Below are positions 1,832-58,329 of a stretch of 64,000 nucleotides of DNA, in pieces. A program made the translations under genes and the position numbers. The notes under the pieces were generated by a model. That model was not told the origin of the DNA, ran no database searches, and saw nothing but the letters and a program-made list of their open reading frames with translations. How positions within the stretch are numbered: the stretch's first letter is position 1; every line of letters begins with the position of its first letter. Origin of the DNA: Escherichia phage vB_EcoM_PHB13. The DNA lies in sequence record MK573636; one strand, given 5' to 3'.

Positions 1832-1839
1832 TAGTTACC

Positions 1840-3639: not shown

Positions 3640-3650
3640 AATTAATCACC

Positions 3651-4205: not shown

Positions 4206-4237
4206 TTTATCACCCTCAATTGATAAATAGTATTATG

Positions 4238-4245
4238 TATTTATA
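4238..4245 (-). promoter_or_regulatory. T4-type late promoter (TATAAATA on the minus strand) for the 53-5-5.1-5.4-6 operon
   Basis: Plus-strand TATTTATA, i.e. TATAAATA on the minus strand, about 33 bp upstream of the gene 53 start, with a GAGGGTG Shine-Dalgarno between them. Confidence 0.5.
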
Positions 4246-4260
4246 ATAAAGGGTGCTAAA

Positions 4261-5745: not shown

Positions 5746-5871
5746 CTAATGTTCCTCCTGTGTTATAATGATATTTATCAACAAGTATCGCTGTTTATTT
5801 TCGTCTGCATTTTAGCAATAGCAAAGAGGATTGTCAAGTGTGTAACAAACATAAACATAGAGGATAATATT

Positions 5872-6693
5872 ATGAGCGTATTTGAAATAATCACCGAAGA
5901 CGAAAAGCCGTCTCCCCAAAAACGAAAGTCTAAACAGTGGGTCGAATTGGGTGTAGAATTTGCGAAGGCAAAAGCCAAAGGCATGACAGCTAAAGCATTT
6001 GCAGATTCTAAGGGAATAGCCTATGCGACTTTCACTAAAAGTATGTCTCGTTATGCAAGCGAAATTAAAACAGCAATAGAAGTTGAAAAACTAAAAGGGA
6101 AAGGTGCAAAGGGTCTCAATAAGCAGCAACGCGCAATGATGATGATTAATGATTTTCGTGCGTCTATGCGTGCTGTATCAAAGAGTCGTCCTAAAGAAAA
6201 ATCACAAGAGTGGTTTACTAAAACAATAAAATCGGGAATAAAGGGACACCAGATTGTAAAACCGCAAGTAGGGCGAATCTATACCTTTATGTATGATGCG
6301 AAGTATAAAGACACTTTGCCATATTGGGATGTTTTCCCGCTGATCATTTGTCTGGGTGATTCTAAGACAAAGGCGGGTAATACTGTAATGCTGGGTCTTA
6401 ACTTACACTATGTAACGCCTAAAGCCCGTCAGCAGTTTTTAGAGGCACTTTTAAAGCAATATGCATCTACTCCTACCTTGAGTAATAAAACACGCTTAAA
6501 AATCAAATGGAGCGATGTAAAAGGTATGCGTGGAAGTGATCACATGATCAAAGCATATCTACCGGGACACATTAAAACAAAACTTGTTGAGATTAGCCCG
6601 AAAGATTGGTCGAATATCATCTATATGCCAACATATCAGTTTATGTCAAAAGGCAAGAAATACGACGCAAGGAAAGTCTGGAAGGATGCATAA
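5872..6693 (+). CDS. 2: DNA end protector protein gp2
   Basis: 273 aa from the ATG at 5872 (SD AGAGGATAATATT-ATG); the ORF-track start at 5740 lies in the promoter region. Size and synteny (4-2-3-1) match T4 gp2. Confidence 0.8.
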   Translation: MSVFEIITEDEKPSPQKRKSKQWVELGVEFAKAKAKGMTAKAFADSKGIAYATFTKSMSRYASEIKTAIEVEKLKGKGAKGLNKQQRAMMMINDFRASMRAVSKSRPKEKSQEWFTKTIKSGIKGHQIVKPQVGRIYTFMYDAKYKDTLPYWDVFPLIICLGDSKTKAGNTVMLGLNLHYVTPKARQQFLEALLKQYASTPTLSNKTRLKIKWSDVKGMRGSDHMIKAYLPGHIKTKLVEISPKDWSNIIYMPTYQFMSKGKKYDARKVWKDA

Positions 6694-6699
6694 GATTAA

Positions 6700-6722
6700 G
6701 CCCGTCAATGACGGGCTTTTTA
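6700..6722 (+). terminator. intrinsic terminator after gene 2
   Basis: GCCCGTCAATGACGGGC hairpin followed by a T-tract. Confidence 0.6.
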
Positions 6723-6977
6723 TTATAGATCGATAGCATGAGCATAACCATGTAAGAAGTCTTTTAATTCTTCCTTATTGGTAACACGCTGTAAAATCTC
6801 TAATGCCTTGTCGCGATCACGTAATGCGCCTGAAAGGGATTTTATTTGGTCATCCCTTTCGGCAATCTGCTTAATCAGATCTGTATTGCATTTAGACAAA
6901 TAGAGAACTTCACCCCGCAATGTTGCTAATTCGTTATCCAAACGATCATAGAGTTTTAACAAAATGTCTTCTGTCAT
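6723..6977 (-). CDS. hypothetical coiled-coil protein
   Basis: 84 aa minus-strand ORF between genes 2 and 3; heptad-like charged sequence; no recognisable domain. Confidence 0.35.
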   Translation of the reverse strand: MTEDILLKLYDRLDNELATLRGEVLYLSKCNTDLIKQIAERDDQIKSLSGALRDRDKALEILQRVTNKEELKDFLHGYAHAIDL

Positions 6978-7166
6978 AAGAAGTCCTCGTATAGTACCCG
7001 TTTTATTTATTACTGTATAAAAATATAGTTATTGGTTAAAACATAACCAAAACGAAGAAAGATCTTTAGAATATAGAAAATTTGTTTCGGTTAAAAAGTA
7101 GTCAGTGCCTACGGCACGTCGCAAAGCGACAATTGTTAATAAATATTTTCATTTGAGGAATCGAAA

Positions 7167-7757
7167 ATGTCCAATCTCTTTAATTATGCTAACCCTAGTA
7201 ACTGGCAGATCAATATTCCAGATGGACAACTAACAAAAGGCTTTACTTTAAATGCTCAAGGTGTTACACTTCCGGCTATAACCATTCCACCGACTAAACA
7301 AGTTGCTGGTCAATATGGTTTGGCGGTCGCTGATTATCCTTCCAGTCATGTAGAGTTTGACCCGTTGGTAGTCCGGTTTATTGTCGATGAGCATTTGGAA
7401 AGCTATCTAAACCTTTACACATGGATGCTTTCTATAGTAGACTACAATAACGGTAACTCCACCGCGTGGAAGGATTCAATGCCGGAAGCCGTTCAAGTTC
7501 ACATGATGGACAACGAACGCCGTAACATTGTGTGCACTTTTAACTTTTATGGTTGTTGGTGTTCACAATTGGGGGAACTTGAGTTAACATACACCGATGA
7601 CATGCATGAATCTCTGGTGTGTACTGCAATTCTTCCATTTAAAACAATGAGCATTGAACGTGATGGTCAACTGATCGTTCCTCGCCCAGCAATTCAGGCG
7701 GCGGATCGTCAGCGAGTGGAAGGTATTAAAGCTATGCACCCTGCATTTAGAAAGTAA
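7167..7757 (+). CDS. 3: tail completion and sheath stabiliser gp3
   Basis: 196 aa; position between 2 and 1 as in T4. Confidence 0.7.
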   Translation: MSNLFNYANPSNWQINIPDGQLTKGFTLNAQGVTLPAITIPPTKQVAGQYGLAVADYPSSHVEFDPLVVRFIVDEHLESYLNLYTWMLSIVDYNNGNSTAWKDSMPEAVQVHMMDNERRNIVCTFNFYGCWCSQLGELELTYTDDMHESLVCTAILPFKTMSIERDGQLIVPRPAIQAADRQRVEGIKAMHPAFRK

Positions 7758-7772
7758 CAAGAGGCTTATATT

Positions 7773-8429
7773 ATGAAATTGATTGCACTTTGTGGTAAAA
7801 AGCGCGTAGGAAAAGACACTGCCGCGTTAATCATTGATGGACACAGTTATCAACTGGCAGCACCGATCAAAGAAATCTTATGCGAATGCCAACCAGACTT
7901 AGGTCTGACTTATCTTGACTTTGACGGGTTGGGGCGTGACAGAGAAGCCGATCTAGGTATTGATACATACACAGCGCATAAGTGGTTTATTCAGTGTCTG
8001 CTTATGCTAGATTCGAAGTATGGCGGTAGTTCCTTTACTTGTGATAGTCTGGCTGAGATTTACAAGGTCGTTAATGAGATCGGCGAAAAACATAATAACG
8101 TCTGGTCTATTCGTCTTATGTTAACCACTCTCGGTACTGACATAATGGTTAACTTGATTAATCCGCTTTATTGGTGTAATCTCTTCGTGAATGAGTTTAT
8201 GAAGCGCAAAAGTGAAGAAGGGTATTTTGTAGTAGTTGATGTGCGTCAGCCTATTGAAATTGCTCTCATGCGTACTATGGGTGCTAAGGTGTTGCATATT
8301 CAGCGTGATACCGGTATTGTATCGACTCACTCCACCGAAAAAGGAATTTTGCCTATTGACGGTGAAACCATTATCATAAATAATGGTACATTAGAAGAAT
8401 TTGAAAGCGCGATTCTCGCGAACATTTAA
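7773..8429 (+). CDS. 1: deoxynucleoside monophosphate kinase gp1
   Basis: 218 aa; N-terminal P-loop (LCGKKRVGKDT) with the T4 gp1 pattern; synteny 3-1-57A. Confidence 0.8.
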   Translation: MKLIALCGKKRVGKDTAALIIDGHSYQLAAPIKEILCECQPDLGLTYLDFDGLGRDREADLGIDTYTAHKWFIQCLLMLDSKYGGSSFTCDSLAEIYKVVNEIGEKHNNVWSIRLMLTTLGTDIMVNLINPLYWCNLFVNEFMKRKSEEGYFVVVDVRQPIEIALMRTMGAKVLHIQRDTGIVSTHSTEKGILPIDGETIIINNGTLEEFESAILANI

Positions 8430-8461
8430 TAAAAAGTTATCAACAAGTAGGAGATGTGAAT

Positions 8462-8722
8462 ATGTCCAATCAGCATGAACAAATGATTAATGTCCTGAAA
8501 GTACGTCTGTTCGACACTCAAGAAAAAGCCGCATTCTTAGAAGGCCAACTGAAAGATCGTGAGCGTGTATTGATGGAACTGGTACGCATTCTGGGTATTC
8601 AGCCAGACGAAAACGGGACTGTTTCCCTTGATGCTATTGTCGAAGAAGTGAAAGCACTTCTCCCTAAAGACGAAGCAGCGGAAGACGCAGAAGAGGAAGT
8701 AGAACTGATCACGGAGGCTTGA
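8462..8722 (+). CDS. 57A: tail-fibre assembly chaperone gp57A
   Basis: About 86 aa, acidic coiled-coil protein after AGGAG SD; position after gene 1 as in T4. Confidence 0.65.
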   Translation: MSNQHEQMINVLKVRLFDTQEKAAFLEGQLKDRERVLMELVRILGIQPDENGTVSLDAIVEEVKALLPKDEAAEDAEEEVELITEA

Positions 8723-9189
8723 TTATGACCCCGTTTAGAGAATCCGTTAAAGGTACATATGCGGCGGTTAAATTCACTGAGGATACACTAGACCGCATTG
8801 AAAAATTGCAGGAGTTCTACGATCTGCCTAATGCCGTTCCTCGTGATAAACTGCATAGCACTATCTTATATTCTCGTGTCTATGTTCCGTTTATCCCAGA
8901 AGAAGGGGAGAAGTTCTTAGGCTCTCTATGCCATCTGAAAGTGTTTGAAACTCAATCCGGTACTAATGCTCTTGTGCTGGCATTTGAAAGCGACTACATG
9001 CAATTCAGACACGATATCGGCACTGCTTTAGGTGCGACGTGGGATTATCCTGAATATGTACCGCATATCACGCTTTCTTATGATGTTGGTGCGCGTAAAT
9101 TTGGCACTGACCTAGAGTTCGATTTAGAGATTGTCCGATCTCATGAGTATGTCGAAGATCTAGACCTGGAGTGGACGACCAAACTGTAA
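8719..9189 (+). CDS. 57B: gp57B-like protein, 2H phosphoesterase fold
   Basis: 156 aa with two H-x-T/S-x motifs (HSTI, HITL) characteristic of the 2H phosphoesterase superfamily; T4 57B position. Confidence 0.6.
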   Translation: MIMTPFRESVKGTYAAVKFTEDTLDRIEKLQEFYDLPNAVPRDKLHSTILYSRVYVPFIPEEGEKFLGSLCHLKVFETQSGTNALVLAFESDYMQFRHDIGTALGATWDYPEYVPHITLSYDVGARKFGTDLEFDLEIVRSHEYVEDLDLEWTTKL

Positions 9190-29405: not shown

Positions 29406-30220
29406 TGAAGAAAGCATTAGGTTTAATTCCCTATACTGGCAATAAGGAAAAGTTATTGCCTGGTGTTAGTAAGTATTTCCCTAAGCACTACAACCGCTTT
29501 GTTGATGCCTTTTGTGGTGGTTTGAGCGTGTCTCTGTATGTTGAAGGTGATGTGCTGGCTAATGACTATGATCACCGTTTAATTGACGCTTACAAGGCCA
29601 TTGATGCGTGTCCTGACCCAGTTTCTACGATCAAGCGGATTATTGCCGAGAATGGTTTGTCTCGCGATGATAAAGATGCTTACATGGCATTCCGCAAGAA
29701 GTATAACGAGAATCCAGATCCGCTATCTCTGTTTGTGTTGATTCAACATAGTTTTAGCAACATTAACCGCCATAACCGGAAGGGCGAATTTAATGCTAAT
29801 TTTGGTCGCCGGACTTTTAACGAAAACGCGGTAGAGCGTGTCCTGAATTTTAAGGAAGAAAACAAAGACGGTCGAATCAGTTTTACGTCTGGACGATATG
29901 ACGAGATCGAGATCTTGCCGGATGATTTCGTTTTCCTTGATCCGCCATATTGGATCACGTCGGCAGAATATAATAAGTTCTGGAGTGAAGAAGAAGAGAT
30001 TAAATTCTACATGTGGATAGAATCATTAATGTCTAGCGGTGCTAAGTTTGGATTAAGCAATGTTACTCACCACAAAGGGAAAGTTAACAACCATCTGCTC
30101 GATTTTATCGAACGTAATGATGTTTCTGTTGTTGAACTGGATAAAACATATTGTTTAGATCGTAGCGGGGGTAAAAAATCCGATACTAAGGAAGTTTATG
30201 TCACCAATGTTAAAATATGA
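29405..30220 (+). CDS. dam: DNA adenine methyltransferase (Dam-like, N6-A MTase)
   Basis: 271 aa; N-terminal AdoMet motif (FVDAFCGGLSV) and catalytic DPPY (FLDPPYW), typical of T4 Dam / GATC MTases. Confidence 0.85.
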   Translation: MKKALGLIPYTGNKEKLLPGVSKYFPKHYNRFVDAFCGGLSVSLYVEGDVLANDYDHRLIDAYKAIDACPDPVSTIKRIIAENGLSRDDKDAYMAFRKKYNENPDPLSLFVLIQHSFSNINRHNRKGEFNANFGRRTFNENAVERVLNFKEENKDGRISFTSGRYDEIEILPDDFVFLDPPYWITSAEYNKFWSEEEEIKFYMWIESLMSSGAKFGLSNVTHHKGKVNNHLLDFIERNDVSVVELDKTYCLDRSGGKKSDTKEVYVTNVKI

Positions 30221-30953
30221 GGTTATACACAAGACTCCAGAAGATAAACGTTTATATGATTTATATCATTCACGGTTTTATTATGATGATGGTTTTCTTA
30301 GGTGGAAGATTCACCCGCACCGAAAAGGTGTTATAAACGGATTAGCTGGAAGTGATACCCCCGATGGGTATCGTATTGTATGGACTGGCGAGCGATACGA
30401 ACGTATGCACCGTGTTATCTATCATATGTTTCATGGTCATTGTCCTAAGTATATAGATCATAAAGACCGAGATCGTTATAATAGCCGCATTGAAAACCTT
30501 AGAGAGACGACAAGCAAACAAAATAATATGAATATGAGCAAGACCAAATGCAAAACATATTCGAAGTATAAAGGTGTGTCGTTTAATAAGAATAAAGGTT
30601 ATTGGACTGGTGCAATAATGTTGGATGGGAAGTCGATACATTTAGGATATTTTCCCTCTGAGATCGGTGCGGCGTATGCATATAATCTTGCAGCGTTGAA
30701 ACATTTTGGTGATAGGTATTGTATAAACGAGATTGATGATATAGAATATGCAAAGTCTGAATATGGCAAGAAGCTCCAAAAAGCAGCAAGTTCCCGTCAT
30801 AGATACGTTTACAAAGTACCAAAACAAGGTAATTACGGTGCTAAAGTTCGCGGTGTGTATATAGGAAGATTTGACACAGAAGATGATGCGGCACGGGCAG
30901 TTAATGCCTATATTATTGAAAATGAACTTGATATAGAACTGAATGAGGTATAA
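30198..30953 (+). CDS. HNH-AP2 homing endonuclease
   Basis: 251 aa; HNH_3-type motif (IDHKDRDRYNSRIENLRETTSKQNNMN) followed by two AP2-like DNA-binding domains (YKGVSFNKNKGYWTGAI..., NYGAKVRGVYIGRFDTEDDAARAVNAYI). Start overlaps the last 23 nt of dam. Confidence 0.75.
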   Translation: MSPMLKYEVIHKTPEDKRLYDLYHSRFYYDDGFLRWKIHPHRKGVINGLAGSDTPDGYRIVWTGERYERMHRVIYHMFHGHCPKYIDHKDRDRYNSRIENLRETTSKQNNMNMSKTKCKTYSKYKGVSFNKNKGYWTGAIMLDGKSIHLGYFPSEIGAAYAYNLAALKHFGDRYCINEIDDIEYAKSEYGKKLQKAASSRHRYVYKVPKQGNYGAKVRGVYIGRFDTEDDAARAVNAYIIENELDIELNEV

Positions 30954-30954
30954 C

Positions 30955-31236
30955 ATGGTAGAAATTTTTGGTTTTGAGGGTTACAACTGTAAGTATTGCC
31001 AGAATGCAAAGCGACTTTGTGAATCGCGTAAGATCCCTTACATCTACATTCCGGTTAATGATGGTGTAGACGAAAACGGTCGTCCGGTAAAGATTGATTA
31101 TATCATTGCCGACATTCAGGATCGCGCAGGGGTAGAAGTTATTGCCACCATGCCGCAGATTTTCTATAATGGTGATTATATTGGTGGTTTTGATGAGTTC
31201 CGTTCCTTTGTAGTCAAAAACAAGATTAATGGTTAA
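30955..31236 (+). CDS. nrdC: glutaredoxin / thioredoxin NrdC
   Basis: About 93 aa with CKYC active site and C-terminal PQIFYNGDYIGGFDEF glutaredoxin signature; T4 nrdC position next to gene 49. Confidence 0.75.
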   Translation: MVEIFGFEGYNCKYCQNAKRLCESRKIPYIYIPVNDGVDENGRPVKIDYIIADIQDRAGVEVIATMPQIFYNGDYIGGFDEFRSFVVKNKING

Positions 31237-31260
31237 ATACCTTCTTTGGAGGGTGAATTT

Positions 31261-31734
31261 ATGTTACTGACTGCTAAGAGTGCTAAAGAGTACAAACAAG
31301 AACTATTCGAAAAACAAGGGGGCATTTGCCCCCTTTGTCAATTGCCACTTTTTGAGGATATGAGCAAAAACCATCTTGACCATGATCACGATCTAGATGG
31401 GAAAGGGCAAGGCCGCGTAAGGGGATTGCTTCATTCGTGTTGCAACCGCCTAGAAGGATCGTTGACCGGAGACTTTAAACGGTTTGGTGTTGGTGCTTTA
31501 GGTGCTGATTTCGTTGTTTGGGCTACAAACTATGTTAATTACATCAAAGGAGACTACACCGACAATCATTTACATCCTCAATATGCTGTTGATAAAGTAA
31601 AACGATTTTCACGCTTGACACGCGCGGAGATGGTTGCTATTATGGACGCAGAAGGTTTCGATTATTGTGACGCTGATACACGAGAAGAAATCACGAAGAA
31701 GTATAAGAAACAATTTATACAAAGATTAAGATAG
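31261..31734 (+). CDS. 49: endonuclease VII (Holliday junction resolvase) gp49
   Basis: 157 aa from MLLTAK; zinc site CPLCQ...HLDHDHDLDG...RGLLHSCCN and overall pattern match T4 endo VII. Confidence 0.85.
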   Translation: MLLTAKSAKEYKQELFEKQGGICPLCQLPLFEDMSKNHLDHDHDLDGKGQGRVRGLLHSCCNRLEGSLTGDFKRFGVGALGADFVVWATNYVNYIKGDYTDNHLHPQYAVDKVKRFSRLTRAEMVAIMDAEGFDYCDADTREEITKKYKKQFIQRLR

Positions 31735-31737
31735 TAG

Positions 31738-31766
31738 TTGACAATAAGAAATGGGAGTAGTAAAAT
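31738..31766 (+). promoter_or_regulatory. sigma70-type early promoter cassette with spacer palindrome
   Basis: TTGACA...GGGAGTAGTAAAATACTCCC...; the -10 is inside the palindrome; leader AAGGAGAATCAACA-ATG. Confidence 0.55.
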
Positions 31767-31797
31767 ACTCCCATCTAATCAAGAAGGAGAATCAACA

Positions 31798-32070
31798 ATG
31801 CGTAAGATGTTTAAATCCGGTGTGGCCTATGTTTTTAAATCTGAGCAAGCACGTAAAGACTTCTTAGAGGATGACTACGAAGGTTTGAAAGATACCTACG
31901 AAGTCATCAAGAATGGGTTTACTGTTCTTAAAGTGTCACCTATTGGTTATGTAAGTGAAATCTCGGTTGATGGGAAAACATATACCGCTAAAGACTTTGA
32001 TCCGCGTTGGGAATTTATGCTTCTTCCGTGTGACCGCATTCTGTTTCGTGCTGTTCAATTAGTGAAATGA
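31798..32070 (+). CDS. hypothetical protein, FKVL/ERKYFKRI-family module
   Basis: About 90 aa; the ORF-track start at 31738 is the promoter TTG. Shares the GFxVLKV...G.V...DG..YTA.DF module with the next two genes. Confidence 0.45.
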   Translation: MRKMFKSGVAYVFKSEQARKDFLEDDYEGLKDTYEVIKNGFTVLKVSPIGYVSEISVDGKTYTAKDFDPRWEFMLLPCDRILFRAVQLVK

Positions 32071-32084
32071 TAGAGGATTATATT

Positions 32085-32645
32085 ATGGTACAGAAAACGT
32101 ATAAATTGTATCCGGCTAAGTCTTCAACTGATGCTGTTTTTGAACGAGGTCGTTATTACACTTTCCGTAATGCTGAGTCCGCAGAGGAATTTATCAAACG
32201 ATGTCCGCAACATAATAAGTTCTTGTATGACGTGCTTTGTAACGGCTTTAAAGTTCTCACTGTTGATGCGATGGGGCGTGTGTATCTGGTAGAAACTCAT
32301 GAGTATGAAGGTGCATCTGTTCTGATTGCTGCAAACGAGCGCAAATACTTTAAACGCATCACTAAAAAGCAGTTTGAAGAAATGAAACCAGTTAAGAAAG
32401 AAGAATCTCTGGGAGATCTGATTAACTTGTTTGGTAAAGTTCGCTCGATCTCCTTTGCGATTGAAGATGACATTACTGACAATAAAATCTTTATCAAGAG
32501 CGCGGAAGACCTGAAAGAGTTTCTTATTGAAAATAGATTTCGGCTGGAAACCTTTCTTGAAAGTGAAATTATTCGACATGATACTTACGCTAAATTCAGC
32601 GCCGATAAAGTAGCTGAACTGAAAGAGATCCAAAAGTCACTTTAA
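32085..32645 (+). CDS. hypothetical protein, FKVL/ERKYFKRI family
   Basis: About 186 aa from GAGGATTATATT-ATG; contains ...GFKVLTVDAMGRVYLVE...ERKYFKRITKKQFEEM. Confidence 0.45.
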   Translation: MVQKTYKLYPAKSSTDAVFERGRYYTFRNAESAEEFIKRCPQHNKFLYDVLCNGFKVLTVDAMGRVYLVETHEYEGASVLIAANERKYFKRITKKQFEEMKPVKKEESLGDLINLFGKVRSISFAIEDDITDNKIFIKSAEDLKEFLIENRFRLETFLESEIIRHDTYAKFSADKVAELKEIQKSL

Positions 32646-32648
32646 CAC

Positions 32649-32677
32649 TTGACATGATGAAACGGGAGTAGTAAGAT
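32649..32677 (+). promoter_or_regulatory. sigma70-type early promoter cassette with spacer palindrome
   Basis: TTGACA...GGGAGTAGTAAGATACTCCC... Confidence 0.55.
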
Positions 32678-32708
32678 ACTCCCATTTAAACAACTAGAGG
32701 ATTATATT

Positions 32709-33887
32709 ATGGCTAAATTCTTTGAAGGTCATTACTATGCATTCCGTGAAGGTGGTAAAGATGAGTTTCTAGACTTTTCTCGCTATTCAATTATTCTGAC
32801 CGATGCTTCGCGCCGTGGTCATATTCGGGTTGCTGAAATCGTCGAAAAGGGCTTTAAAGTATTAGAAAAAGATGACAACGGTCATGTTATTACTATTGAA
32901 GCTGGAGATGTAGTTTATTCCGCTGAGGATATCGTTTATTATTGGGCTACTATGATTATGCACGATGAGCGTAAATACTTTAAACGCATCTCAAAAGAGG
33001 CATACGAAGCGATGAACAAGAAAGAGGATGCAATGCCGACTTACTTTGAAAAAGGTAAATGTTATTCGTTTACACCAGAAGGTTTGCAAGAATTTAAGCG
33101 ATTCTGGGGAGAGCATGATCCAGATCACAAAGAAGCTATGAAACTTGTTGATTTTGTCGAATATGGCTTTTTAGTTGAAGAAGAATTGCACGGATCAGCT
33201 ACCATGATCACCGCGAAAGGTGAAACTGTTAAGGCAGATCGTTTTTGTGATCAATGGGCTTGTGTGTTTGATGGTGGCGAATTTGAATACTTCGCGGAAA
33301 TCACGAAACAACAATTTCATTCTATGCAAGCGGATGGTCAGAGATTTAAAGTAGGTGAACGCTACAAGCCAAATCAGCATAATTTGCCATATTGGTTTAC
33401 CGCTGAAACTGTATCAAGTCATGTTGTTGAAATTGTTCAAAAGCTGGGACAAGGATTTAAGGTGACTAAAGTAGATGATTATGGAAGTGTTGACGCGGTT
33501 GAAATTGATGGTGTAGAATATACACCGAAATCTTTCGGGCTTTGCTGGTATCACTTGATCAGCAATGATGAACGTTATAACTTTGTTGAACTGCCATCTG
33601 AACCGGAAGAAGCACTAGAAGATCATGATCATCTGTCTGAACTGGTTAAACTGTTTGGTGATCTGCCGGATGGTGTAGGCGTGGCGGTAATGGGTGAAGG
33701 TACTGTTATTCGCAACCTGAAAGACCTTAAAAAGTTCTTGATTGACATGCTGCCTAAACTTGATGATAATCTCGATAAAGATATTCAGAATCGCAAAGAA
33801 ATTGTTAAAGATACTGAAAAAGAGATCGAAGAGATTCGAGCAATTCGCCAGAAGGTGAAAGCAGTAAAGAAAAAAGTTAGTGCTTGA
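32709..33887 (+). CDS. hypothetical protein, FKVL/ERKYFKRI family (multi-module)
   Basis: 392 aa with at least three related internal modules (GFKVLEKDDNGHV..ERKYFKRISKEAYEAM; GFLVEEELHG...; GFKVTKVDDYGSV...). Confidence 0.45.
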   Translation: MAKFFEGHYYAFREGGKDEFLDFSRYSIILTDASRRGHIRVAEIVEKGFKVLEKDDNGHVITIEAGDVVYSAEDIVYYWATMIMHDERKYFKRISKEAYEAMNKKEDAMPTYFEKGKCYSFTPEGLQEFKRFWGEHDPDHKEAMKLVDFVEYGFLVEEELHGSATMITAKGETVKADRFCDQWACVFDGGEFEYFAEITKQQFHSMQADGQRFKVGERYKPNQHNLPYWFTAETVSSHVVEIVQKLGQGFKVTKVDDYGSVDAVEIDGVEYTPKSFGLCWYHLISNDERYNFVELPSEPEEALEDHDHLSELVKLFGDLPDGVGVAVMGEGTVIRNLKDLKKFLIDMLPKLDDNLDKDIQNRKEIVKDTEKEIEEIRAIRQKVKAVKKKVSA

Positions 33888-33911
33888 CATGCGAAGGGAG
33901 TATGCTATAAT
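33884..33911 (+). promoter_or_regulatory. sigma70-type early promoter cassette with spacer palindrome
   Basis: TGCTTGACA-...GGGAGTATGCTATAATACTCCC...; consensus TATAAT within the palindrome. Confidence 0.55.
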
Positions 33912-33941
33912 ACTCCCACTTAACAACGAGAGGATTATATT

Positions 33942-34436
33942 ATGTGGGTACAAGATGTTTGGTATACTGTAACTAAAGAAAACCTTGACGCATTCAGCGA
34001 CCAATCTTGCGCTAATAGCTCAATTGCTGGTATACTTACTGATGTGTTTGGTGGTGTAGATAAAATTCGTTTTAAAGTTGTTGTTAGTTCGCTGGGTCAG
34101 GTGAAAGATCTTTACACCGAAGATAAAGACCTTGATCTTGAACTTCGTCTTCGTATTGATAATGCAAGTCTAGGTTATTGGTTTGAAGATAACGAATATG
34201 AATACTTCACACCAGCAATTAAAGTTTTTGCGACTAAACTGGAAGCTGTACTGAATCTACGACCAATTAATGTTGACGGCTACATTATCAAAAATATTCA
34301 GGATTGGGAGTTGTATCTAGATCAGGTTATCCGAAATAGTAAGCAGGAAGCCGCTAATAAGAAGCGACAAGAGATTAAACAGCTTAAAGCTGAACTGGAA
34401 GCGGCGGAAAAAGAATTAGCAGAACTGGTAAAATAA
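33942..34436 (+). CDS. hypothetical protein
   Basis: 164 aa; C-terminal coiled coil. Confidence 0.45.
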   Translation: MWVQDVWYTVTKENLDAFSDQSCANSSIAGILTDVFGGVDKIRFKVVVSSLGQVKDLYTEDKDLDLELRLRIDNASLGYWFEDNEYEYFTPAIKVFATKLEAVLNLRPINVDGYIIKNIQDWELYLDQVIRNSKQEAANKKRQEIKQLKAELEAAEKELAELVK

Positions 34437-34444
34437 CTATCAAC

Positions 34445-34468
34445 GAGCGGGAGAAATCCCGCTTTTTC
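34445..34468 (+). terminator. intrinsic terminator
   Basis: AGCGGGAGAAATCCCGCT hairpin plus TTTTT. Confidence 0.6.
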
Positions 34469-34480
34469 ATAGGTGATACA

Positions 34481-36343
34481 ATGGAAAAACTAATCAAAGA
34501 CATTACAGAGATCGCAACGGGTAAAGAAAACGAAGTAAGCAAAGAGAACGCGAACAAAGACGCGCGAACATTCCCGACACGTCGAGATCTGATTGCTGGT
34601 GCTGTGTCTAAACAGATTGCTAAAACCGTGTTACCTGAGCACATCTATAAAGCGCATGTAGACGGTGACATTCATTATCATGATATGGATTATGCACCCG
34701 CTATGCCGTTTACTAACTGCTGTCTTGTTAATCTCAAAGACATGTTAGAGAATGGTTTTAAATTGGGTAGCGCACAAATCGAAAGTCCGAAATCAATCGG
34801 CGTTGCTTGTGCTGTAACCGCTCAAATTATCGCACAGGTGGCAAGTCATCAATATGGCGGGACCACAATCGCAAACATCGACCAGGTGTTAGCGCCGTAT
34901 GTTAAGAAAACATATCATAAACACCTTGCTGATGCCGAAGCCTACGGAATCAAAGCTGATACTCTCTATGCACAAGAGAAAACAGAAAAAGAAACGTTAG
35001 ACGGATATCAGGCGTTGGAATATGAGATCAACACTTTGTTCTCTACCAACGGTCAAACACCTTTTGTGACTTTAACCTTTGGTATGGGTACTAGCTGGGA
35101 AGAAAAACTGATTCAGAAAGCGATCCTGAAAGTTCGAACTAAAGGTTTAGGTAAAGACGGTATAACTCCGGTGTTTCCTAAGCTGGTGATGTTCTTAGAA
35201 GAAGGATTAAACCTTAAACCGGAAGATCCGAACTACGACATTAAGCAACTTGCATTGGAATGTTCTAGTAAGCGTCTTTACCCTGATTATATCTCTGCGA
35301 AGAATAACCGTAGCATCACTGGATCTAGTGTTCCGGTTAGCCCGATGGGTTGTCGTAGCTTCCTGGGTGTGTGGCATAATGATAAAGGCGAGGAAGTATT
35401 AGACGGACGTAATAACTTAGGTGTTGTGACTCTGAATCTTCCGCGTATTGCCCTTATTGCCGCTCGTCGTGCTGGTAAAGCGTCTGTAATGCGCAGAATT
35501 GAGCTATTCGAACAAGAGCTAGCTAATCGTATGCCTATTTGCTTTGATGCGCTCATGAGTCGCGTAGACGCTTTAAAAGGGGCTAAAGCCAATGTTGCTC
35601 CGGTGCTGTATACAGAAGGTGCATTTTTCCGTATTCATCAAAACGATGAAATTTTGGAAGTGTTGAAAGATGGTCGCGCTAGTATCTCTCTTGGGTATAT
35701 TGGTTTACATGAGGTATTGAGCGTCCTGTTTGGTGTTCATCCGTTTGATTCGGAAGATGCGCAGCGATACGGTAAACATATTCTTAAGATCTTGCGTCAT
35801 TATACTGAAAAATGGAAGGATGAAACCGGACTTGGGTTTAGTCTTTACGGTACGCCAGCCGAGAGCCTTTGCTATCGATTTAATCGACTGGATCGAGAGC
35901 AATTTGGTATTGTTAAGGGTGCTACCGATAAAGACTGGTACACCAACTCATTCCACCTTGACGTAGACCGGAAAGTCACACCATTTGAGAAAATCGACTT
36001 TGAGAAAGATTATCACTGGCTGGCGTCCGGTGGCATGATCTCTTATGTTGAGTTCCCAGACATGAAAAACAACCTGAAAGGTCTTGAAACTGTAGTAGAC
36101 TATGCAATGGATAAATTGCACTACTTCGGTGTTAATACTCCTTCTGATGTATGTCATGTATGCGGATCTAATAAGGAAATGAGAGCGACCGAGTCTGGTT
36201 TTGTTTGCCCTGATTGCGGCAATGACAATCTGGAAAAGATGAATGTTATCCGTCGCGTTAGTGGATATCTTGGATCTGTTGATCTGCGTCCATTCAACCA
36301 CGGGAAACACTCCGAGATGGTAAACCGCGTTAAGCACATGTAA
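34481..36343 (+). CDS. nrdD: anaerobic ribonucleoside-triphosphate reductase NrdD
   Basis: 620 aa; class III RNR size with C-terminal zinc ribbon (CHVCG...CPDCG) and glycyl-radical region (RRVSGYLGS). Uninterrupted reading frame, no intron. Confidence 0.9.
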   Translation: MEKLIKDITEIATGKENEVSKENANKDARTFPTRRDLIAGAVSKQIAKTVLPEHIYKAHVDGDIHYHDMDYAPAMPFTNCCLVNLKDMLENGFKLGSAQIESPKSIGVACAVTAQIIAQVASHQYGGTTIANIDQVLAPYVKKTYHKHLADAEAYGIKADTLYAQEKTEKETLDGYQALEYEINTLFSTNGQTPFVTLTFGMGTSWEEKLIQKAILKVRTKGLGKDGITPVFPKLVMFLEEGLNLKPEDPNYDIKQLALECSSKRLYPDYISAKNNRSITGSSVPVSPMGCRSFLGVWHNDKGEEVLDGRNNLGVVTLNLPRIALIAARRAGKASVMRRIELFEQELANRMPICFDALMSRVDALKGAKANVAPVLYTEGAFFRIHQNDEILEVLKDGRASISLGYIGLHEVLSVLFGVHPFDSEDAQRYGKHILKILRHYTEKWKDETGLGFSLYGTPAESLCYRFNRLDREQFGIVKGATDKDWYTNSFHLDVDRKVTPFEKIDFEKDYHWLASGGMISYVEFPDMKNNLKGLETVVDYAMDKLHYFGVNTPSDVCHVCGSNKEMRATESGFVCPDCGNDNLEKMNVIRRVSGYLGSVDLRPFNHGKHSEMVNRVKHM

Positions 36344-36349
36344 TTTTCA

Positions 36350-36381
36350 GCCGATCCGAAAGGGTCGGCTTTTTCGTTTTT
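36350..36381 (+). terminator. intrinsic terminator after nrdD
   Basis: GCCGATCCGAAAGGGTCGGC hairpin plus T-tract. Confidence 0.65.
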
Positions 36382-36386
36382 GGGTG

Positions 36387-36414
36387 TTGACAACCTGATT
36401 AGCTAATGTATAAT
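36387..36414 (+). promoter_or_regulatory. sigma70-type early promoter cassette
   Basis: TTGACA-N16-TATAAT followed by ...CATCGAAAACAACGAGAGG...ATG. Confidence 0.6.
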
Positions 36415-36443: not shown

Positions 36444-36986
36444 ATGATGATGATGTTTTGTGTACTGAGCAAAGAAGTTAAACTTCGTAAACTGGAAATT
36501 GGCGATGGTGTTGTTGTTAAAATGCACGCTAGCACATTGGCTAGTTTTAATTTAAAGGAAAGTTTTTTTATTAGAGGAACGGTGGTTAATGTCTGCTGGA
36601 GTCAAGGCGAAGGAATCCGTAGCTTTTGCGTAATTGACGATGATAATAACCTGTATGTGATTCGCTATCATAATAATTCTGTATTGGTCTATACCGACAA
36701 TTCACGAGAATTATATACTCTTGAATTTGTTAAGCGTACTGATTGCGACCGATTTGTTCGTGCTTATGAAGAAGATGGCTGTTTTGCGACTGAAACAGAA
36801 ACAAATGAATATGTTCCTATGGAAGTAGGAGCAGAAATTAAACACAAGATCACGGATCGTATTTTTAAGGTTGTGGCGGTTGCTCATACTCAATTTGTAG
36901 CGCAAGCGCCGGATGAAGAATTTATTATCTACAATATTGGTAATGCAAGTTCTCATTTTCATAATGTACTATATCGCGACCTTTGA
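36444..36986 (+). CDS. hypothetical protein
   Basis: 180 aa between nrdD and nrdG, where T4 has mobC / I-TevIII; no nuclease motif recognised. Confidence 0.45.
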   Translation: MMMMFCVLSKEVKLRKLEIGDGVVVKMHASTLASFNLKESFFIRGTVVNVCWSQGEGIRSFCVIDDDNNLYVIRYHNNSVLVYTDNSRELYTLEFVKRTDCDRFVRAYEEDGCFATETETNEYVPMEVGAEIKHKITDRIFKVVAVAHTQFVAQAPDEEFIIYNIGNASSHFHNVLYRDL

Positions 36987-37003
36987 TAATGTGTGAGGTG
37001 AAT

Positions 37004-37531
37004 ATGAAATCATTAAACCGTAAGCGTAAAGCACAACGACACAAAGAACTAGCTAAAAAGATTGCTATTGAACTGGTTGAGCGTGAGGATAGCTATTTGT
37101 CTACGGGTCGTTTGTATACATTCCATGCATTGATTGATGGTAAGCCAGTGTTGCATAATCATGATTGTTTGGCACTGTTTCACGAAATCAAACCAATTCA
37201 TCGTGAATGGGATGACAACAAAGCAAAAGGTCAATATTTCCTTACTTGTTCGTGTGGTCATGCTGGATGTGCTGGATATTGGGAACCTGTTACTATCCGT
37301 GAGAAAAATGATACCATTCAATGGGTCGCCCGTACCCGCGATGGTTATGATAAAGGTGCTGATGGTACTGGAGATAACGTAGTTTACTTTAATCGTGATT
37401 GGTATTATATGGCGCGATGTATGATCCTGTTTTATCTTGACTCGATGCCGTATGAATATTTCAGTTTCCAGAATGGGACCGAACTGACAGGGAAGGAATG
37501 GTCTGACTACATTCGAAAAAATTTAAAATAA
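37004..37531 (+). CDS. hypothetical protein
   Basis: About 175 aa from GAGGTGAAT-ATG; contains CSCGHAGCAG. Confidence 0.45.
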   Translation: MKSLNRKRKAQRHKELAKKIAIELVEREDSYLSTGRLYTFHALIDGKPVLHNHDCLALFHEIKPIHREWDDNKAKGQYFLTCSCGHAGCAGYWEPVTIREKNDTIQWVARTRDGYDKGADGTGDNVVYFNRDWYYMARCMILFYLDSMPYEYFSFQNGTELTGKEWSDYIRKNLK

Positions 37532-37535
37532 ATGC

Positions 37536-37564
37536 TTGACGGGGATCGCGAGATCCCCTATACT
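37536..37564 (+). promoter_or_regulatory. sigma70-type early promoter cassette with spacer palindrome
   Basis: TGCTTGACG-GGGATCGCGAGATCCCC-TATACT followed by ...ACGAGATAC...AGGAGAATCAAAT-ATG. Confidence 0.55.
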
Positions 37565-37606
37565 ATATTCATCAAGACGAGATACAACTTTACAGGAGAA
37601 TCAAAT

Positions 37607-37759
37607 ATGTGGACTTTACTGATTTGGGAAACTGAAAACGCACAAGTAGAAATCCGTGAATACGAATACCTAAGCCCAGCTTATCTATTAGCATCTCGCG
37701 GTGGTTACTATAAAGCGCAGATTGTAAACGAGTTCGGGGTAATTGAATATGAGTTCTGA
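37607..37759 (+). CDS. small hypothetical protein (50 aa)
   Basis: ATG at consensus distance from the cassette SD; the ORF-track start at 37532 lies in the promoter. Confidence 0.4.
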   Translation: MWTLLIWETENAQVEIREYEYLSPAYLLASRGGYYKAQIVNEFGVIEYEF

Positions 37760-38262: not shown

Positions 38263-38790
38263 ATGGAATGGGAAGTTGGTAAAACTTACAAGATTGAATG
38301 CGAAGCGTCGAAAGCCGAACTGACTAAATTTTCGTCGTCTATTAACAGATGTATTGTTGACTTGTTGGCTGGTCGCCCGTTTAGGGTAGAAGACCTTGAC
38401 GATGATGGTGATGTTAGAGAAATTACTATTATTGGTAGTAATTTCGACTCTATGACGTTAAAAGAATCCCCTATTGGCTGTTCCGGTGTGTGGTTTTGGT
38501 CGGGTGAGCGTCGTTTCTTTACCGAAGTTACTATTGAACCTAAGATTCCAGATTCGGAAGAAAAAGAAGAAGACCTAACTTTAGAACGCCTGGGTCTGCT
38601 TATGGAAGCCTACGACATTCAGTTGATCGATAAGATGGGGTTACATAATAGCATTGCCAAAATTACTACCCTAGAAGGTATTAAGAGCGTGCTTGATGGT
38701 ATGCCTAGCCGGATCGGTGCTATCCGAGAATACAAGCAAACGCGCGACCGTATGATCCAATTAGAATCACGTATCAAAAATGAGAGATGA
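38263..38790 (+). CDS. WExGKTY-family protein (paralog 1)
   Basis: About 175 aa starting MEWEVGKTYK. Confidence 0.45.
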   Translation: MEWEVGKTYKIECEASKAELTKFSSSINRCIVDLLAGRPFRVEDLDDDGDVREITIIGSNFDSMTLKESPIGCSGVWFWSGERRFFTEVTIEPKIPDSEEKEEDLTLERLGLLMEAYDIQLIDKMGLHNSIAKITTLEGIKSVLDGMPSRIGAIREYKQTRDRMIQLESRIKNER

Positions 38791-38794
38791 TATT

Positions 38795-39259
38795 ATGAAA
38801 TGGGAAGCTGGTAAGACCTATGCGTGGAAAGATGTAAAAGATGCAAACCAATTTTTTAAATGGTATGATGTTGATTATTTGAAATATCTGAGATTACCGT
38901 TTAAAGTTGCGTCGGTTGATGCGAAAAAAGGATACGTGCGGTCTGTTTATCTTCATGATGGAACTTATATGAGTTCAACCGATGTAGGTCTATCTTGTTG
39001 GTTTCTGGATCATGACCGTAGCAGATTTGAAGAAATTATTATTCCAGAAGAATCTAAATTAATTGATCTTCTCAAGTTGGCGATGGATAATTATAAAATC
39101 CGCTTTGAATGCAAATCACATGCGGCTATCGGTGCTAACGCCTTGCGTCATATCTCCAGTTTTGAAGAGTTGAAAGATTTTCTTGACAAAATGCCGGAAA
39201 GGGTGCAAGCTATACAGGAAGCAGAGAAAGCATTAAACGAACTTGATAAAATCGGTTAA
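38795..39259 (+). CDS. WExGKTY-family protein (paralog 2)
   Basis: About 154 aa starting MKWEAGKTYAWKD. Confidence 0.45.
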   Translation: MKWEAGKTYAWKDVKDANQFFKWYDVDYLKYLRLPFKVASVDAKKGYVRSVYLHDGTYMSSTDVGLSCWFLDHDRSRFEEIIIPEESKLIDLLKLAMDNYKIRFECKSHAAIGANALRHISSFEELKDFLDKMPERVQAIQEAEKALNELDKIG

Positions 39260-39271
39260 GGGGAATATATT

Positions 39272-40096
39272 ATGAAATGGGAAATTGGTAAAACTTACAC
39301 CTGGAAAGACGAAAACGCTAAAACTGAGTTTATTACTAACGGAGAAGGTGTTCTTTCTCCACTTAACAGCGATATTAGTGCAGCTATTGGTGACAAGCCA
39401 TTTACCATCATCGAGATCGAGGGTAACGGTTGGATTGATGCAATAGAGCTAGACGGTGTTTATCATACGGCGAAAACTGCTACAGGAAAAGACATTTGGA
39501 AGTCAACATATTTGTTTAGTCCATTTGATAGAAAATTCTTTCGTGAAGTTGAAGAAGTTCCCCAGAAATGGGAAGTTGGTAAAACTTATACTTGGAAAGA
39601 TATTAAGGCTATGACCGACTTCTGTCATTATGCCGAAAACGTATCTAACCTTAATTATGTTATTGCACGAGCAATAAATTATAGACCTTTTACTGTTAAA
39701 AATGTTCGTCCATGTGGGCAAATTGATGTAATTGAAATTGATGGTAAAGACCATACTCTAATGAGCGCAACCGAAGATAGAGACCATAAAGGAACTAGCT
39801 GGTTTATTGATTCTGATAGAAAATTCTTTCGTGAAGTAGAAGAATTGGAAGTTATAACCACTGATTCTAAGATCGTTGGACAGTTGAAACGTCTGTTTAG
39901 TAGTCGTTACGGCCTGACAATGGTTAAATTTGGCGAAGCAAATGAAGGTAAAACCTTTGAACGTTTCGATGATTTCATTTCGGCACTTGACAAGATGGAT
40001 GAAATCATGCAAGATCGCCAGAAGATTAAAGACCTTCAAGAAGACATTAAACGTCGTGAAGTTGAATTTTTGATTGGTAAAGAGCGAGGATGGTAA
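39272..40096 (+). CDS. WExGKTY-family protein (paralog 3, internally duplicated)
   Basis: 274 aa with two copies of the module (MKWEIGKTYTWKD... and ...QKWEVGKTYTWKD..., each ending DRKFFREVEE). Confidence 0.45.
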   Translation: MKWEIGKTYTWKDENAKTEFITNGEGVLSPLNSDISAAIGDKPFTIIEIEGNGWIDAIELDGVYHTAKTATGKDIWKSTYLFSPFDRKFFREVEEVPQKWEVGKTYTWKDIKAMTDFCHYAENVSNLNYVIARAINYRPFTVKNVRPCGQIDVIEIDGKDHTLMSATEDRDHKGTSWFIDSDRKFFREVEELEVITTDSKIVGQLKRLFSSRYGLTMVKFGEANEGKTFERFDDFISALDKMDEIMQDRQKIKDLQEDIKRREVEFLIGKERGW

Positions 40097-40097
40097 T

Positions 40098-40583
40098 ATG
40101 TTTGTTGCTGGCGTGACCTATCAGTGGAAAGATAAGAAAACGAGAGAAGATTTTGCAAACTTTAGCGTTGCAAATGATGCAATAGCAGAGTTTATCGGCG
40201 ACCGTCCATTTAAAGTTATTGCATTTGATCACCACCATGCATCGGATGTGAATTATGTTTCTGTGATTGAAATTGATGGCACGGTATACACCTGCTGCAA
40301 TGTTGATGATGTACGGGAATACGCGCACAACTGGTTTTTGCAATCAGAAGAACGTCATTTTAAAGTGGTATCGGCAGAGCTATCATCCGAAGCAATGTTG
40401 GAACAATTTTTCAACAACTACGAAGTTTCTGTACGTCGCTATGGCGAAGAAGAAGTGTTTAAAATCGATGATTACAATCAGTTTAAACGAGTATTCGCCA
40501 CTAAGTTACAGCGTGATTTTGAACGCGAGAAGCGCATCAAGGAACTGGAAGAAGAATTGGAAAGATTAAAGGCTGAGAAATGA
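40098..40583 (+). CDS. WExGKTY-family protein (paralog 4)
   Basis: About 161 aa starting MFVAGVTYQWKD. Confidence 0.45.
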   Translation: MFVAGVTYQWKDKKTREDFANFSVANDAIAEFIGDRPFKVIAFDHHHASDVNYVSVIEIDGTVYTCCNVDDVREYAHNWFLQSEERHFKVVSAELSSEAMLEQFFNNYEVSVRRYGEEEVFKIDDYNQFKRVFATKLQRDFEREKRIKELEEELERLKAEK

Positions 40584-40849
40584 TCGAGATATACGGTATA
40601 CCGAAAGAGGCTTATCATTGTTATGGTTGTATTAGTGCAATGAAGCTACTGGATGATCTGGGTATTCCGTATACACTTAAACCAGTATTCAAGCAGGTCG
40701 GGGTTGACATTATTCCCGACCGTGATATGATTGAAGAACTGGCGGGGAGGCTAAACTCAAAGAGCCTCCGGTTTGTATACCCCCAGATATTCATTGACAA
40801 CGAGCACATTGGAGGCTATAAAGAACTGAGGGCGATTTATGATTATTGA
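40580..40849 (+). CDS. nrdH: glutaredoxin-like protein NrdH
   Basis: 89 aa with CYGC redox motif and C-terminal PQIFIDNEHIGGY glutaredoxin signature; T4 nrdH position. Confidence 0.7.
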   Translation: MIEIYGIPKEAYHCYGCISAMKLLDDLGIPYTLKPVFKQVGVDIIPDRDMIEELAGRLNSKSLRFVYPQIFIDNEHIGGYKELRAIYDY

Positions 40850-57693: not shown

Positions 57694-58329
57694 ATGATCG
57701 CTAATGCTTTACCGCCAAAATGGATCGTAAGTCGCTTTTATACTCTCAAGGAAGGTAACGCACCTGATGGTCGTCCGATCCGAGATCTGTTTCTGGAGAT
57801 GACTACCGCCGAAGCACAATTTTATAATGATCTGACAGACGATAAGCCGTTTCTTGTAAATTCTGTGGATCTTGATGGTAATGTTACGTCAATTATCGCA
57901 CATGGTGGGGAAGTGAAAAATATTACTTCTCTGCGTGAACACGGTTGGGAAATTGCTTGTGTATTTCCTGCGGATGTACGCGGATTCTTTGATGAGGTAT
58001 CTGATATTAAAGTAAATGCACTAGAACCATATGACGAGATCCCACCACTGAAAGAAGAAAAAGAGTTGACACCGGAAGATGTAGATAGTACACTACACCC
58101 AGACCTATTTAAGAAGATTAGCGGTTTATGGACTGTTACCCTGCATCCAACCGCATTAGGTCTAGAATTGGGTATGCCAACTTATTCTGATATTGATAAT
58201 TGGACTAAGCATATTGATAAAGATGTTGAAAAACAGCGAAATAATGCTAAAATGCAACTTAAAGAGAAACGAAAAGATCTTGAACGACAACTGAAAGAAA
58301 CCAAACATTTGCTTTCTACGTTCGCTTGA
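57694..58329 (+). CDS. hypothetical protein
   Basis: 211 aa. Confidence 0.4.
   Translation: MIANALPPKWIVSRFYTLKEGNAPDGRPIRDLFLEMTTAEAQFYNDLTDDKPFLVNSVDLDGNVTSIIAHGGEVKNITSLREHGWEIACVFPADVRGFFDEVSDIKVNALEPYDEIPPLKEEKELTPEDVDSTLHPDLFKKISGLWTVTLHPTALGLELGMPTYSDIDNWTKHIDKDVEKQRNNAKMQLKEKRKDLERQLKETKHLLSTFA

Follow-up and report, generated by a model that had tools for sequence, protein, structure and literature searches.

What are the genes that separate gene 49 from nrdD in Escherichia phage vB_EcoM_PHB13, and do they have any counterpart in bacteriophage T4? This question was addressed with a 64,000-nucleotide (nt) stretch of the sequence record MK573636, hereafter called the window, which represents a T4-like coliphage of the RB49/JSE type (Krischvirus). 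A sequence-only reading of the window had described three consecutive plus-strand genes of 90, 186, and 392 amino acids (aa) after gene 49 as repeats of a single module. Their coordinates and lengths were confirmed, and they are designated here as A, B, and C. A fourth member of the array, D, lies outside the coordinates of that reading, and the order on the plus strand is gene 49, A, B, C, D, and nrdD (Table 1). The best explanation, which is considered quite probable, is that A to D are an array of early paralogs of the GoF/Frd.2/MotB.1 proteins of T4, driven by promoter-early stem-loop (PeSL) elements and shaped by recombination, and that they are probably multivalent modulators of mRNA fate or of host factors.

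A Repeated Module in Genes A to D

The internal repeat is real, because alignments, shuffle z-scores, hidden Markov models (HMMs) of the module, and an HMM from a separate gene cluster agree. With BLASTP, B aligns with three separate stretches of C (2-124, 113-217, and 246-383), and A aligns with B and with two stretches of C. Smith-Waterman scores were judged against 2000 shuffles. With the modules of C numbered C1 to C3, none of the 2000 shuffles was as high as the scores for C1-C2 (z = 12.8), C1-C3 (14.5), B-C1 (15.7), A-C3 (10.3), and A-B (10.1). The C2-C3 pair alone is weak (z = 1.2), and C2 and C3 are each tied to C1 and to B. The HMM from the five modules of A to C recognizes exactly three domains in C, where at least three copies had been counted by eye. 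The HMM built only from the cluster of genes E1 to E4, located further downstream in the window, is non-circular with respect to A to C, and it matches C (E-value 4.6e-11), A (1.3e-9), and B (1.5e-4). Thus, the internal repeat search proposed along with the sequence-only reading returned significant repeats with BLASTP, shuffles, and HMM, and the idea of a modular expansion is borne out by these three and by the structural model of C.

The similarity of these genes could in principle be compositional or due to chance, with no real module behind it. The low pairwise identity between modules (17-37%) and the score of C2 against C3 fit such a view. All other pairings reach z-scores of 4-16, with 0-6 of the 2000 shuffles as high, and independent HMMs, PHROG profiles, hhalign, and predicted structures agree with each other; chance similarity is regarded as practically excluded.

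The motifs quoted in the sequence-only reading are present, GF(T/K)VL...G.V and, in B and module 1 of C, ERKYFKRI(T/S)K. A 50-nt stretch over the ERKYFKRI motif is 78% identical between B and C. The size given there, about 70 aa, was too small. The module is about 90-105 aa long, since a conserved F-x-G-x-x-Y strand and helices open it, and its signature is [FW]-x-x-G-x-x-Y ... F ... F-x-V ... G ... E-R-x-[FY]-F-x-E-[VI]. The family is also not confined to the three genes: D, a group of four genes (38263-40583), and a single further gene (57694-58329) belong to it as well.

The module of D is divergent. It is matched by the family-wide HMM of 75 modules, in which D is not included (E-value 3.8e-8), and hhalign aligns it collinearly (E-value 5.7e-4), with WFEDNEYEYF opposite the ER-x-x-F motif. 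D weakly matches phrog_3710 and phrog_5804, both of which are also matched by GoF. A 28-nt stretch is 82% identical between module 2 of C at FDGGEFEYF (33266-33293) and D at FEDNEYEYF (34181-34208); this likeness may reflect common origin, gene conversion, or chance.

The tails that follow the modules show similarity in the shuffle test, with z = 6.7 for the tails of B and C and z = 5.5 for those of D and C. The tail HMM has no significant link to D, to the gene at 57694-58329 (F), or to any T4 protein.

[quoted passage not shown]

Profile comparison indicates that the module is the N-terminal domain of the GoF/Frd.2/MotB.1 family of T4, in which the kinship with Frd.2 and MotB.1 is more distant. 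This family with an "LSm-like fold" was described by Kim et al. (2025, Comput Struct Biotechnol J, PMC12152347). GoF is the ComC-alpha protein of T4. The profile of 11 modules from the window aligns with T4 GoF (hhalign 96.7%, E-value 3.8e-10) collinearly over GoF residues 1-91, and with T4 Frd.2 (86%, E-value 4.8e-6). MotB.1 gives a weak hhalign match and an E-value of 3.3e-5 with the family HMM. Within the 149 kb of T4 scanned, the HMMs match only these three proteins. GoF is the sole match of the five-module HMM of A to C among T4 open reading frames (ORFs), and it is matched by the HMM of E1 to E4 as well.

The public profiles point in the same direction. Gene A matches phrog_16115 and, more weakly, profiles of the goF family; B matches phrog_8944, "goF" (E-value 1.6e-97); and C matches the PHROG profile "goF mRNA metabolism modulator" (E-value 1.2e-213). 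Three stretches of C match phrog_622, the profile that holds T4 GoF and Frd.2 (2.1e-19). B and C are already named "goF mRNA metabolism modulator" in RefSeq and PHROG. Sub-threshold matches of A to D in Pfam and NCBIfam (RecT, LYR, HALZ, VioA, and McsA) were rejected as noise. A tblastn search with C and a word-indexed protein search returned nothing but Krischvirus orthologs (identity of 79% or more), and therefore single-sequence searches cannot link the family.

The earlier statement that the expansion has no recognizable T4 counterpart is thus not tenable, and what is true is narrower. In T4, gene 49 shares four bases with nrdD, which leaves no gene at the position of A to D, and T4 has no multi-module member.

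C is named "frd.2" in the records of RB49, JSE, and Phi1. This name would suggest that C is the RB49 ortholog of T4 frd.2 and that the other genes are unrelated ORFans, and the match of C to phrog_622 is compatible with it. The Pfam family PF03197 (FRD2) recognizes T4 Frd.2 with 133 bits (cutoff 29) and an E-value of 5e-39, and it has no match in A, B, C, or D even at an E-value of 1. The module profile lies closer to T4 GoF than it does to Frd.2. Gene C carries three modules, and the paralogy of A, B, and D has been demonstrated. C is not located beside frd, and no family member was found in the RB49 regions of 1-9 kb and 114-164 kb, the latter of which contains frd. The name "frd.2" on C does not indicate orthology, because PF03197 misses C and no family member lies near RB49 frd; an orthologous relationship of this kind is highly improbable, and the gene name in the three records is to be corrected.

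The RB49 sequence at 1-9000 (L012) also shows a 39.2-like FmdB gene directly adjoining dexA, and goF, cef, motB, motB.1, and motB.2 of T4 have no positional counterparts there. Thus, the GoF-like genes of Krischvirus are all at other loci.

Predicted Structure of the Module

The AlphaFold2 model of A, based on 36 sequences, has a predicted local distance difference test score (pLDDT) of 90.2 and a predicted template modelling score (pTM) of 0.80. Its elements are in the order of beta1, two helices, beta2-beta3-beta4, a short helix, and beta5. The module is, as modelled, a five-stranded SH3-like ("LSm-like") barrel in which strands 1 and 2 are separated by a helical insert. It has the bent five-stranded antiparallel sheet of the GoF family, with folds of the FeoA/IdeR type as its nearest solved relatives; FeoA is the closest solved structure to the A model, as reported for GoF. 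The Foldseek search with A against viral models (BFVD) returned 48 matches at E-values up to 1e-3 with template modelling scores of 0.7-0.87. All of them are from phages, nearly all T4-like, and annotated GoF is among them.

The same order of elements is predicted three times in C (9-102, 118-208, and 218-295), where the strands of module 1 are at 9-12, 49-54, 60-65, 68-71, and 91-93. The tail of C is predicted to consist of a helix (307-317), two strands (325-327 and 332-334), and a long helix (337-391), which is probably a coiled coil according to the model.

When the family profile was searched against the chain sequences of the PDB, nothing credible was found; the best match was eL20 (E-value 0.012), and SNAP-25 was matched by the coiled-coil tail. 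The FeoA and DtxR-IdeR C-terminal SH3-like domains and the Tudor and KOW barrels show only 5-17% sequence identity to the module. In contrast to FeoA, Tudor, and KOW barrels, the phage module has two helices inserted between beta1 and beta2, and its beta5 is preceded by the conserved motif ER-x-[FY]-F. Unlike the FeoA and DtxR-IdeR domains, it lacks metal-binding histidines, as noted for GoF.

Hfq/Sm proteins, the true LSm proteins, resemble the module in having a small, bent antiparallel sheet of five strands, and the T4 mutant protein GoF(D25Y), described below, may add a shared connection with RNA stability. Hfq/Sm proteins are not the closest structural relatives of the module, and ring-forming oligomerization was not found. 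It has to be considered whether C is a covalently linked LSm ring, in which dimerization through the tail would create an Hfq-like pseudo-hexamer able to compete with host Hfq or to mimic it. The name given to the fold by Kim et al., the presence of three modules and a long helix in C, and the dimers of GoF and MotB.1 on gels would agree with such a ring. AlphaFold2 gives no packing between the modules of C (pTM 0.32), AlphaFold3 gave no confident multimers of GoF, the effect of GoF(D25Y) is Hfq-independent, and most family members have one or two modules; a ring of this type is very unlikely.

PeSL Cassettes in the Array

Three sites in the array show an intergenic sigma-70 promoter with a stem-loop, an upstream stop codon, and a downstream Shine-Dalgarno sequence and start codon. 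These cassettes are PeSL elements, already described from RB49 and phi1 (Arbiol et al. 2010, PMC2839356; Comeau et al. 2014, PMC4122927). In phi1/RB49, promoter and attenuator activity of PeSL was shown experimentally, the promoters of such elements work in vivo in this group of phages, and PeSLs were proposed to mediate cassette exchange (PMC2839356).

The three promoters, TTGACA-N16/17-TA(A/T)(A/G)AT at 31738, 32649, and 33884, show 10-12 of 12 consensus matches. The inverted repeat GGGAGTA...TACTCCC occurs three times in the window, where none is expected, and nowhere else than in these cassettes. The hairpins have a folding free energy (dG) of -11.9 to -13.8 kcal/mol (z from -3.9 to -5.5). 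The cassette of A matches at 11 of 12 promoter positions, its stem-loop GGGAGTA/TACTCCC at 31753-31772 overlaps the -10 box (dG -13.8 kcal/mol, z -5.5), and its Shine-Dalgarno sequence is GAAGGAG. The cassette of D matches at 12 of 12 positions, and its -35 box overlaps the stop codon of C. Promoters are annotated at both places in GEC-3S. No RNA family from Rfam was found anywhere in the window.

The proposal that each gene has its own promoter cassette holds for A and C, and extends to D, while it fails for B. Upstream of B, no promoter cassette was found by promoter scan, stem-loop pattern, or alignment of upstream regions. B starts 15 nt past the stop codon of A, and the regions upstream of B, C, and D have only the ribosome-binding stretch AGAGGATTATATTATG in common. 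It is probable that B is co-transcribed with A.

The cassettes resemble known PeSLs in the sigma-70 consensus promoter whose -10 box is overlapped by a stable stem-loop (a described subclass), in the upstream stop codon within or next to the -35 box, in the Shine-Dalgarno sequence and start codon at the 3' end, and in flanking accessory ORFs of a hyperplastic region with signs of cassette recombination. They differ from other PeSLs in having one common stem and in flanking paralogous genes instead of unrelated ORFans; nothing essential is different.

Paralogs in the Window and in Other Phages

The window contains nine family genes with 12 modules in total. Besides A to D, the module HMM revealed E1 to E4 and F. 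Each of E1 to E4 is composed of one or two modules and a tail, and they match phrog_5347, with cross-matches to goF profiles. They follow directly after nrdG and precede a glutaredoxin-like gene (40580-40849). Neighboring genes adjoin or overlap each other, and no PeSL separates them. F, located directly after the gene 41 helicase, occupies the interval where T4 has dmd, 61.4, sp, 61.2, and 61.1. The BFVD match "Dc2" of phage ECD7, also 211 aa, is probably an ortholog of F.

Compared with T4, the Krischvirus set differs in several respects. The T4 members have one barrel each, whereas C carries a tandem of three and E3 a pair. The tail of a helix, a hairpin, and a long helix in B, C, and E1 to E4 was not detected in T4. 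Against three family genes in T4, Krischvirus has nine genes and 12 modules. The loci 49-nrdD, nrdG-nrdH, and 41-61 differ from those of T4, and RB49 has no member at the goF position. Common to both are a variable C-terminal part after a linker, small size, acidic composition, location in early regions, and restriction to T4-like phages. The layout of one N-terminal barrel, a linker, and a variable C-terminal domain applies to B and D and not to the array as a whole; A has no C-terminal domain, and C has three barrels before the tail. The report of Kim et al. (PMC12152347) does not mention multi-module forms, RB49, or Krischvirus, and "tandem" appears only in the name of a reporter assay.

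With HMMER, the module profile returned only 84 matches at E-values up to 1e-3 from 1.84 billion representative proteins. The genuine matches are small phage proteins, most with one module and about eleven clusters with two. Three modules were seen in only two clusters among these matches, the C family and P0083. Some 10 repetitive proteins of giant size (900-5000 aa) were rejected, in which only a beta-hairpin stretch of 25-35 residues matched, many times; a second HMM misses nine of the 10, and the tenth (P0103) has marginal short matches (E-values 6e-4 to 1e-2). In the giant proteins P0066, P0068, P0070, P0077, P0091, and others, only the F-x-V..D..G-x-V..I..DG hairpin is seen, and they are probably false positives of the profile; P0070 resembles an out-of-frame translation of a DNA repeat.

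P0083 originates from a 71-kb uncultured T4-like contig (SRR14300940). Neither a relative of P0083, with tblastn, nor a close relative of the contig was found in the phage collection. In this contig (L014, 2920-11065), five consecutive genes encode two or three GoF-like modules each. Thus, multi-module GoF-like arrays beside nrdD are recurrent. This array lies upstream of a gene for a 499-aa protein with a SegE-type GIY-YIG domain and an endonuclease VII dimerization domain, an unusual fusion, followed by nrdD.

Natural Variation, Probable Recombination, and Selection

Phage KFS-EC lacks A and B and has one cassette between gene 49 and C. This cassette is a hybrid, the left part of which is identical to the cassette of A and the right part to the cassette of C. 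The comparison with KFS-EC thus suggests that PeSL acts here as a recombination site at which flanked ORFs are deleted or inserted. The number of modules also varies. A metagenomic ortholog of E3 (P0028, 182 aa), which occupies the corresponding position behind nrdG, carries a single module where E3 carries two, and B is collinear in BLASTP with C minus modules 2 and 3. The apparently longer C of FL04 (1650 nt matched) was rejected as joined matches of B and C; its architecture is the same. The array and the number of modules per gene would have arisen, and would still vary, by duplication and by recombination between PeSL cassettes and between modules.

The ratio of nonsynonymous to synonymous substitution rates (dN/dS) was computed among six Krischviruses. 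For C, it is 0.24 in module 1, 0.26 in module 2, 0.16 in module 3, and 0.14 in the tail. All parts of C are under purifying selection.

Proposed Function

The goF gene was discovered via suppression of rho alleles. T4 GoF is an abundant, non-essential early protein, which runs as a monomer and a dimer, and GoF(D25Y) stabilizes gene 41 mRNA post-transcriptionally and independently of Hfq (PMC12152347). Based on these data on GoF, A to D are proposed as early multivalent binders acting on the fate of phage mRNA. The array would be transcribed from the sigma-70-type PeSL cassettes that precede A, C, and D, with B carried on the transcript of A, and transcription would end at the terminator before nrdD. 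The products would be abundant, non-essential early proteins. Their barrels may bind RNA or a host factor of RNA metabolism or transcription, such as Rho, RNA polymerase, or the degradosome, and thereby tune phage mRNA fate. The long helical tail may dimerize the protein, and tandem barrels would produce a multivalent binder, with up to six barrels per dimer of C.

Several observations weigh against this proposal. In the reporter assay, wild-type GoF and MotB.1 had little effect (PMC12152347). The full-length model of C is of moderate quality (pLDDT 65, pTM 0.32) and gives no arrangement between domains. The similarity of tails between the two gene clusters is not significant (E-value 0.07).

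The folds closest to the module, FeoA, Tudor, and KOW-type barrels, make a protein-binding role a serious rival. The barrels would then be protein-protein modules instead of RNA binders, and the array would supply diversifying adaptors for host takeover or counter-defence, docking on host proteins such as RNA polymerase, Rho, or a defence protein, much as SH3-like domains of the Tudor, KOW, and FeoA types do. The suppression of rho alleles is in accordance with such a role, as is the observation that wild-type GoF and MotB.1 do not stabilize the reporter RNA. So are the location of the genes in hyperplastic regions, with polymorphism in presence and copy number, and the recurrence of multi-module paralog arrays beside nrdD in an unrelated T4-like contig. 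On the other hand, a pull-down of GoF recovered essentially GoF itself, and the dN/dS values of 0.14-0.26 give no sign of positive selection on whole modules. A purely protein-binding array is possible, although rather unlikely.

One lead on function comes from the second goF suppressor, G84R, which alters a residue of the conserved ER-x-[FY]-F motif (T4 GoF is encoded at 1843-2268 of L003, minus strand). The corresponding column holds Lys or Arg in 31 of the 75 modules of the family, among them B, C1, E1, and the two modules of E3, and Gly in only 8 of 75. G84R introduces this same residue class, and members with natural Lys or Arg may therefore already have the mutant property. The D25 position shows no conservation among family members; its residue is variable overall and aromatic in 5 of the 11 modules of the window. 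A bolder extension, which must be called doubtful, is that, in Krischviruses and certain uncultured T4-like phages, the single GoF barrel has been turned into a combinatorial toolkit of arrays of one to three barrels with dimerizing tails, shuffled between PeSLs and between modules. In this toolkit, proteins with a natural basic residue at the G84R position (B, C1, E1, and E3) would already be mRNA-protecting or anti-Rho, and the number of barrels would set avidity or specificity for the target.

Genomic Setting

The coordinates of the features are summarized in Table 1. The DNA of 31200-34500 is 93-98% identical to 58 Krischvirus genomes, including RB49, JSE, Phi1, and GEC-3S, and the lengths of A, B, and C match the annotation in public Krischvirus records. 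The terminator after D (dG -17 kcal/mol, z -5.0) is annotated at the same place in GEC-3S.

Table 1. Features of the A-D array, its neighbors, and the other family genes in the window.
Feature	Position	Strand	Description
HNH homing endonuclease gene	30198-30953	+	251 aa, upstream of nrdC
nrdC	30943-31236	+	Glutaredoxin/thioredoxin
Gene 49	31261-31734	+	Endonuclease VII; Pfam Endonuclease_7 and dimerization domain
PeSL cassette upstream of A	31738-31797	+	-35 TTGACA 31738-43, -10 TAAAAT 31761-66
Gene A	31798-32070	+	90 aa, one GoF-like barrel module, no C-terminal tail
Gene B	32085-32645	+	186 aa, module at about aa 14-112, helix-hairpin-long-helix tail
PeSL cassette upstream of C	32649-32708	+	-35 TTGACA 32649-54, -10 TAAGAT 32672-77, stem-loop 32664-32683
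Gene C	32709-33887	+	392 aa, three tandem modules and tail
Gene C module 1	32709-33032	+	aa 1-108, HMM domain
Gene C module 2	33033-33338	+	aa 109-210, HMM domain
Gene C module 3	33339-33626	+	aa 211-306, HMM domain
Gene C tail	33627-33887	+	aa 307-392; predicted short helix, beta-hairpin, helix of about 55 residues
PeSL cassette upstream of D	33884-33941	+	-35 TTGACA 33884-89, -10 TATAAT 33906-11, stem-loop 33896-33917
Gene D	33942-34436	+	164 aa, divergent GoF-like module at about aa 1-95, coiled-coil tail
Intrinsic terminator	34445-34470	+	GCGGGAGAAATCCCGC followed by T run, just before nrdD
nrdD	34481-36343	+	Intact, 620 aa
E1	38263-38790	+	Module HMM
E2	38795-39259	+	Module HMM
E3	39272-40096	+	Module HMM, two modules
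E4	40098-40583	+	Module HMM
F	57694-58329	+	211 aa, one module, directly after gene 41 helicase; phrog_16187

The HNH homing endonuclease gene before nrdC is also present in GEC-3S and absent from JSE, FL04, KFS-EC, and Brandy, where dam lies immediately before nrdC. This difference is a presence/absence polymorphism of a mobile element. In JSE (L001, 4782-6269), the first reading frame of nrdD is only 879 nt long and is followed by a homing endonuclease gene. Between nrdD and nrdG of the window, three ORFs (180, 182, and 75 aa) are located at 36444-37759, preceded by a strong terminator (36349-36370) and a promoter of perfect consensus (36387-36414).

Implications

GoF has remained puzzling to T4 biologists since the 1970s, in that its mutants rescue growth on rho alleles. 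The family to which it belongs was recognized only in 2025, from three single-domain proteins of T4 (PMC12152347). The module family, with its names in RefSeq and PHROG, and the PeSL cassettes are thus already known, and the array is not a new kind of system. What appears to be new is that three barrels are arranged in tandem, that a tail is shared, that the paralog set is so large, and that the numbers of genes and modules vary naturally. The same barrel can be repeated up to three times in tandem and expanded to nine genes in one phage. A ready-made allelic series is available in A, B, C, and D, in KFS-EC without A and B, and in the one-module and two-module forms of E3. The map of conserved residues (Y11, F22, F41, G50, E82, and F86 in GoF numbering) can be used for testing what the domain binds.

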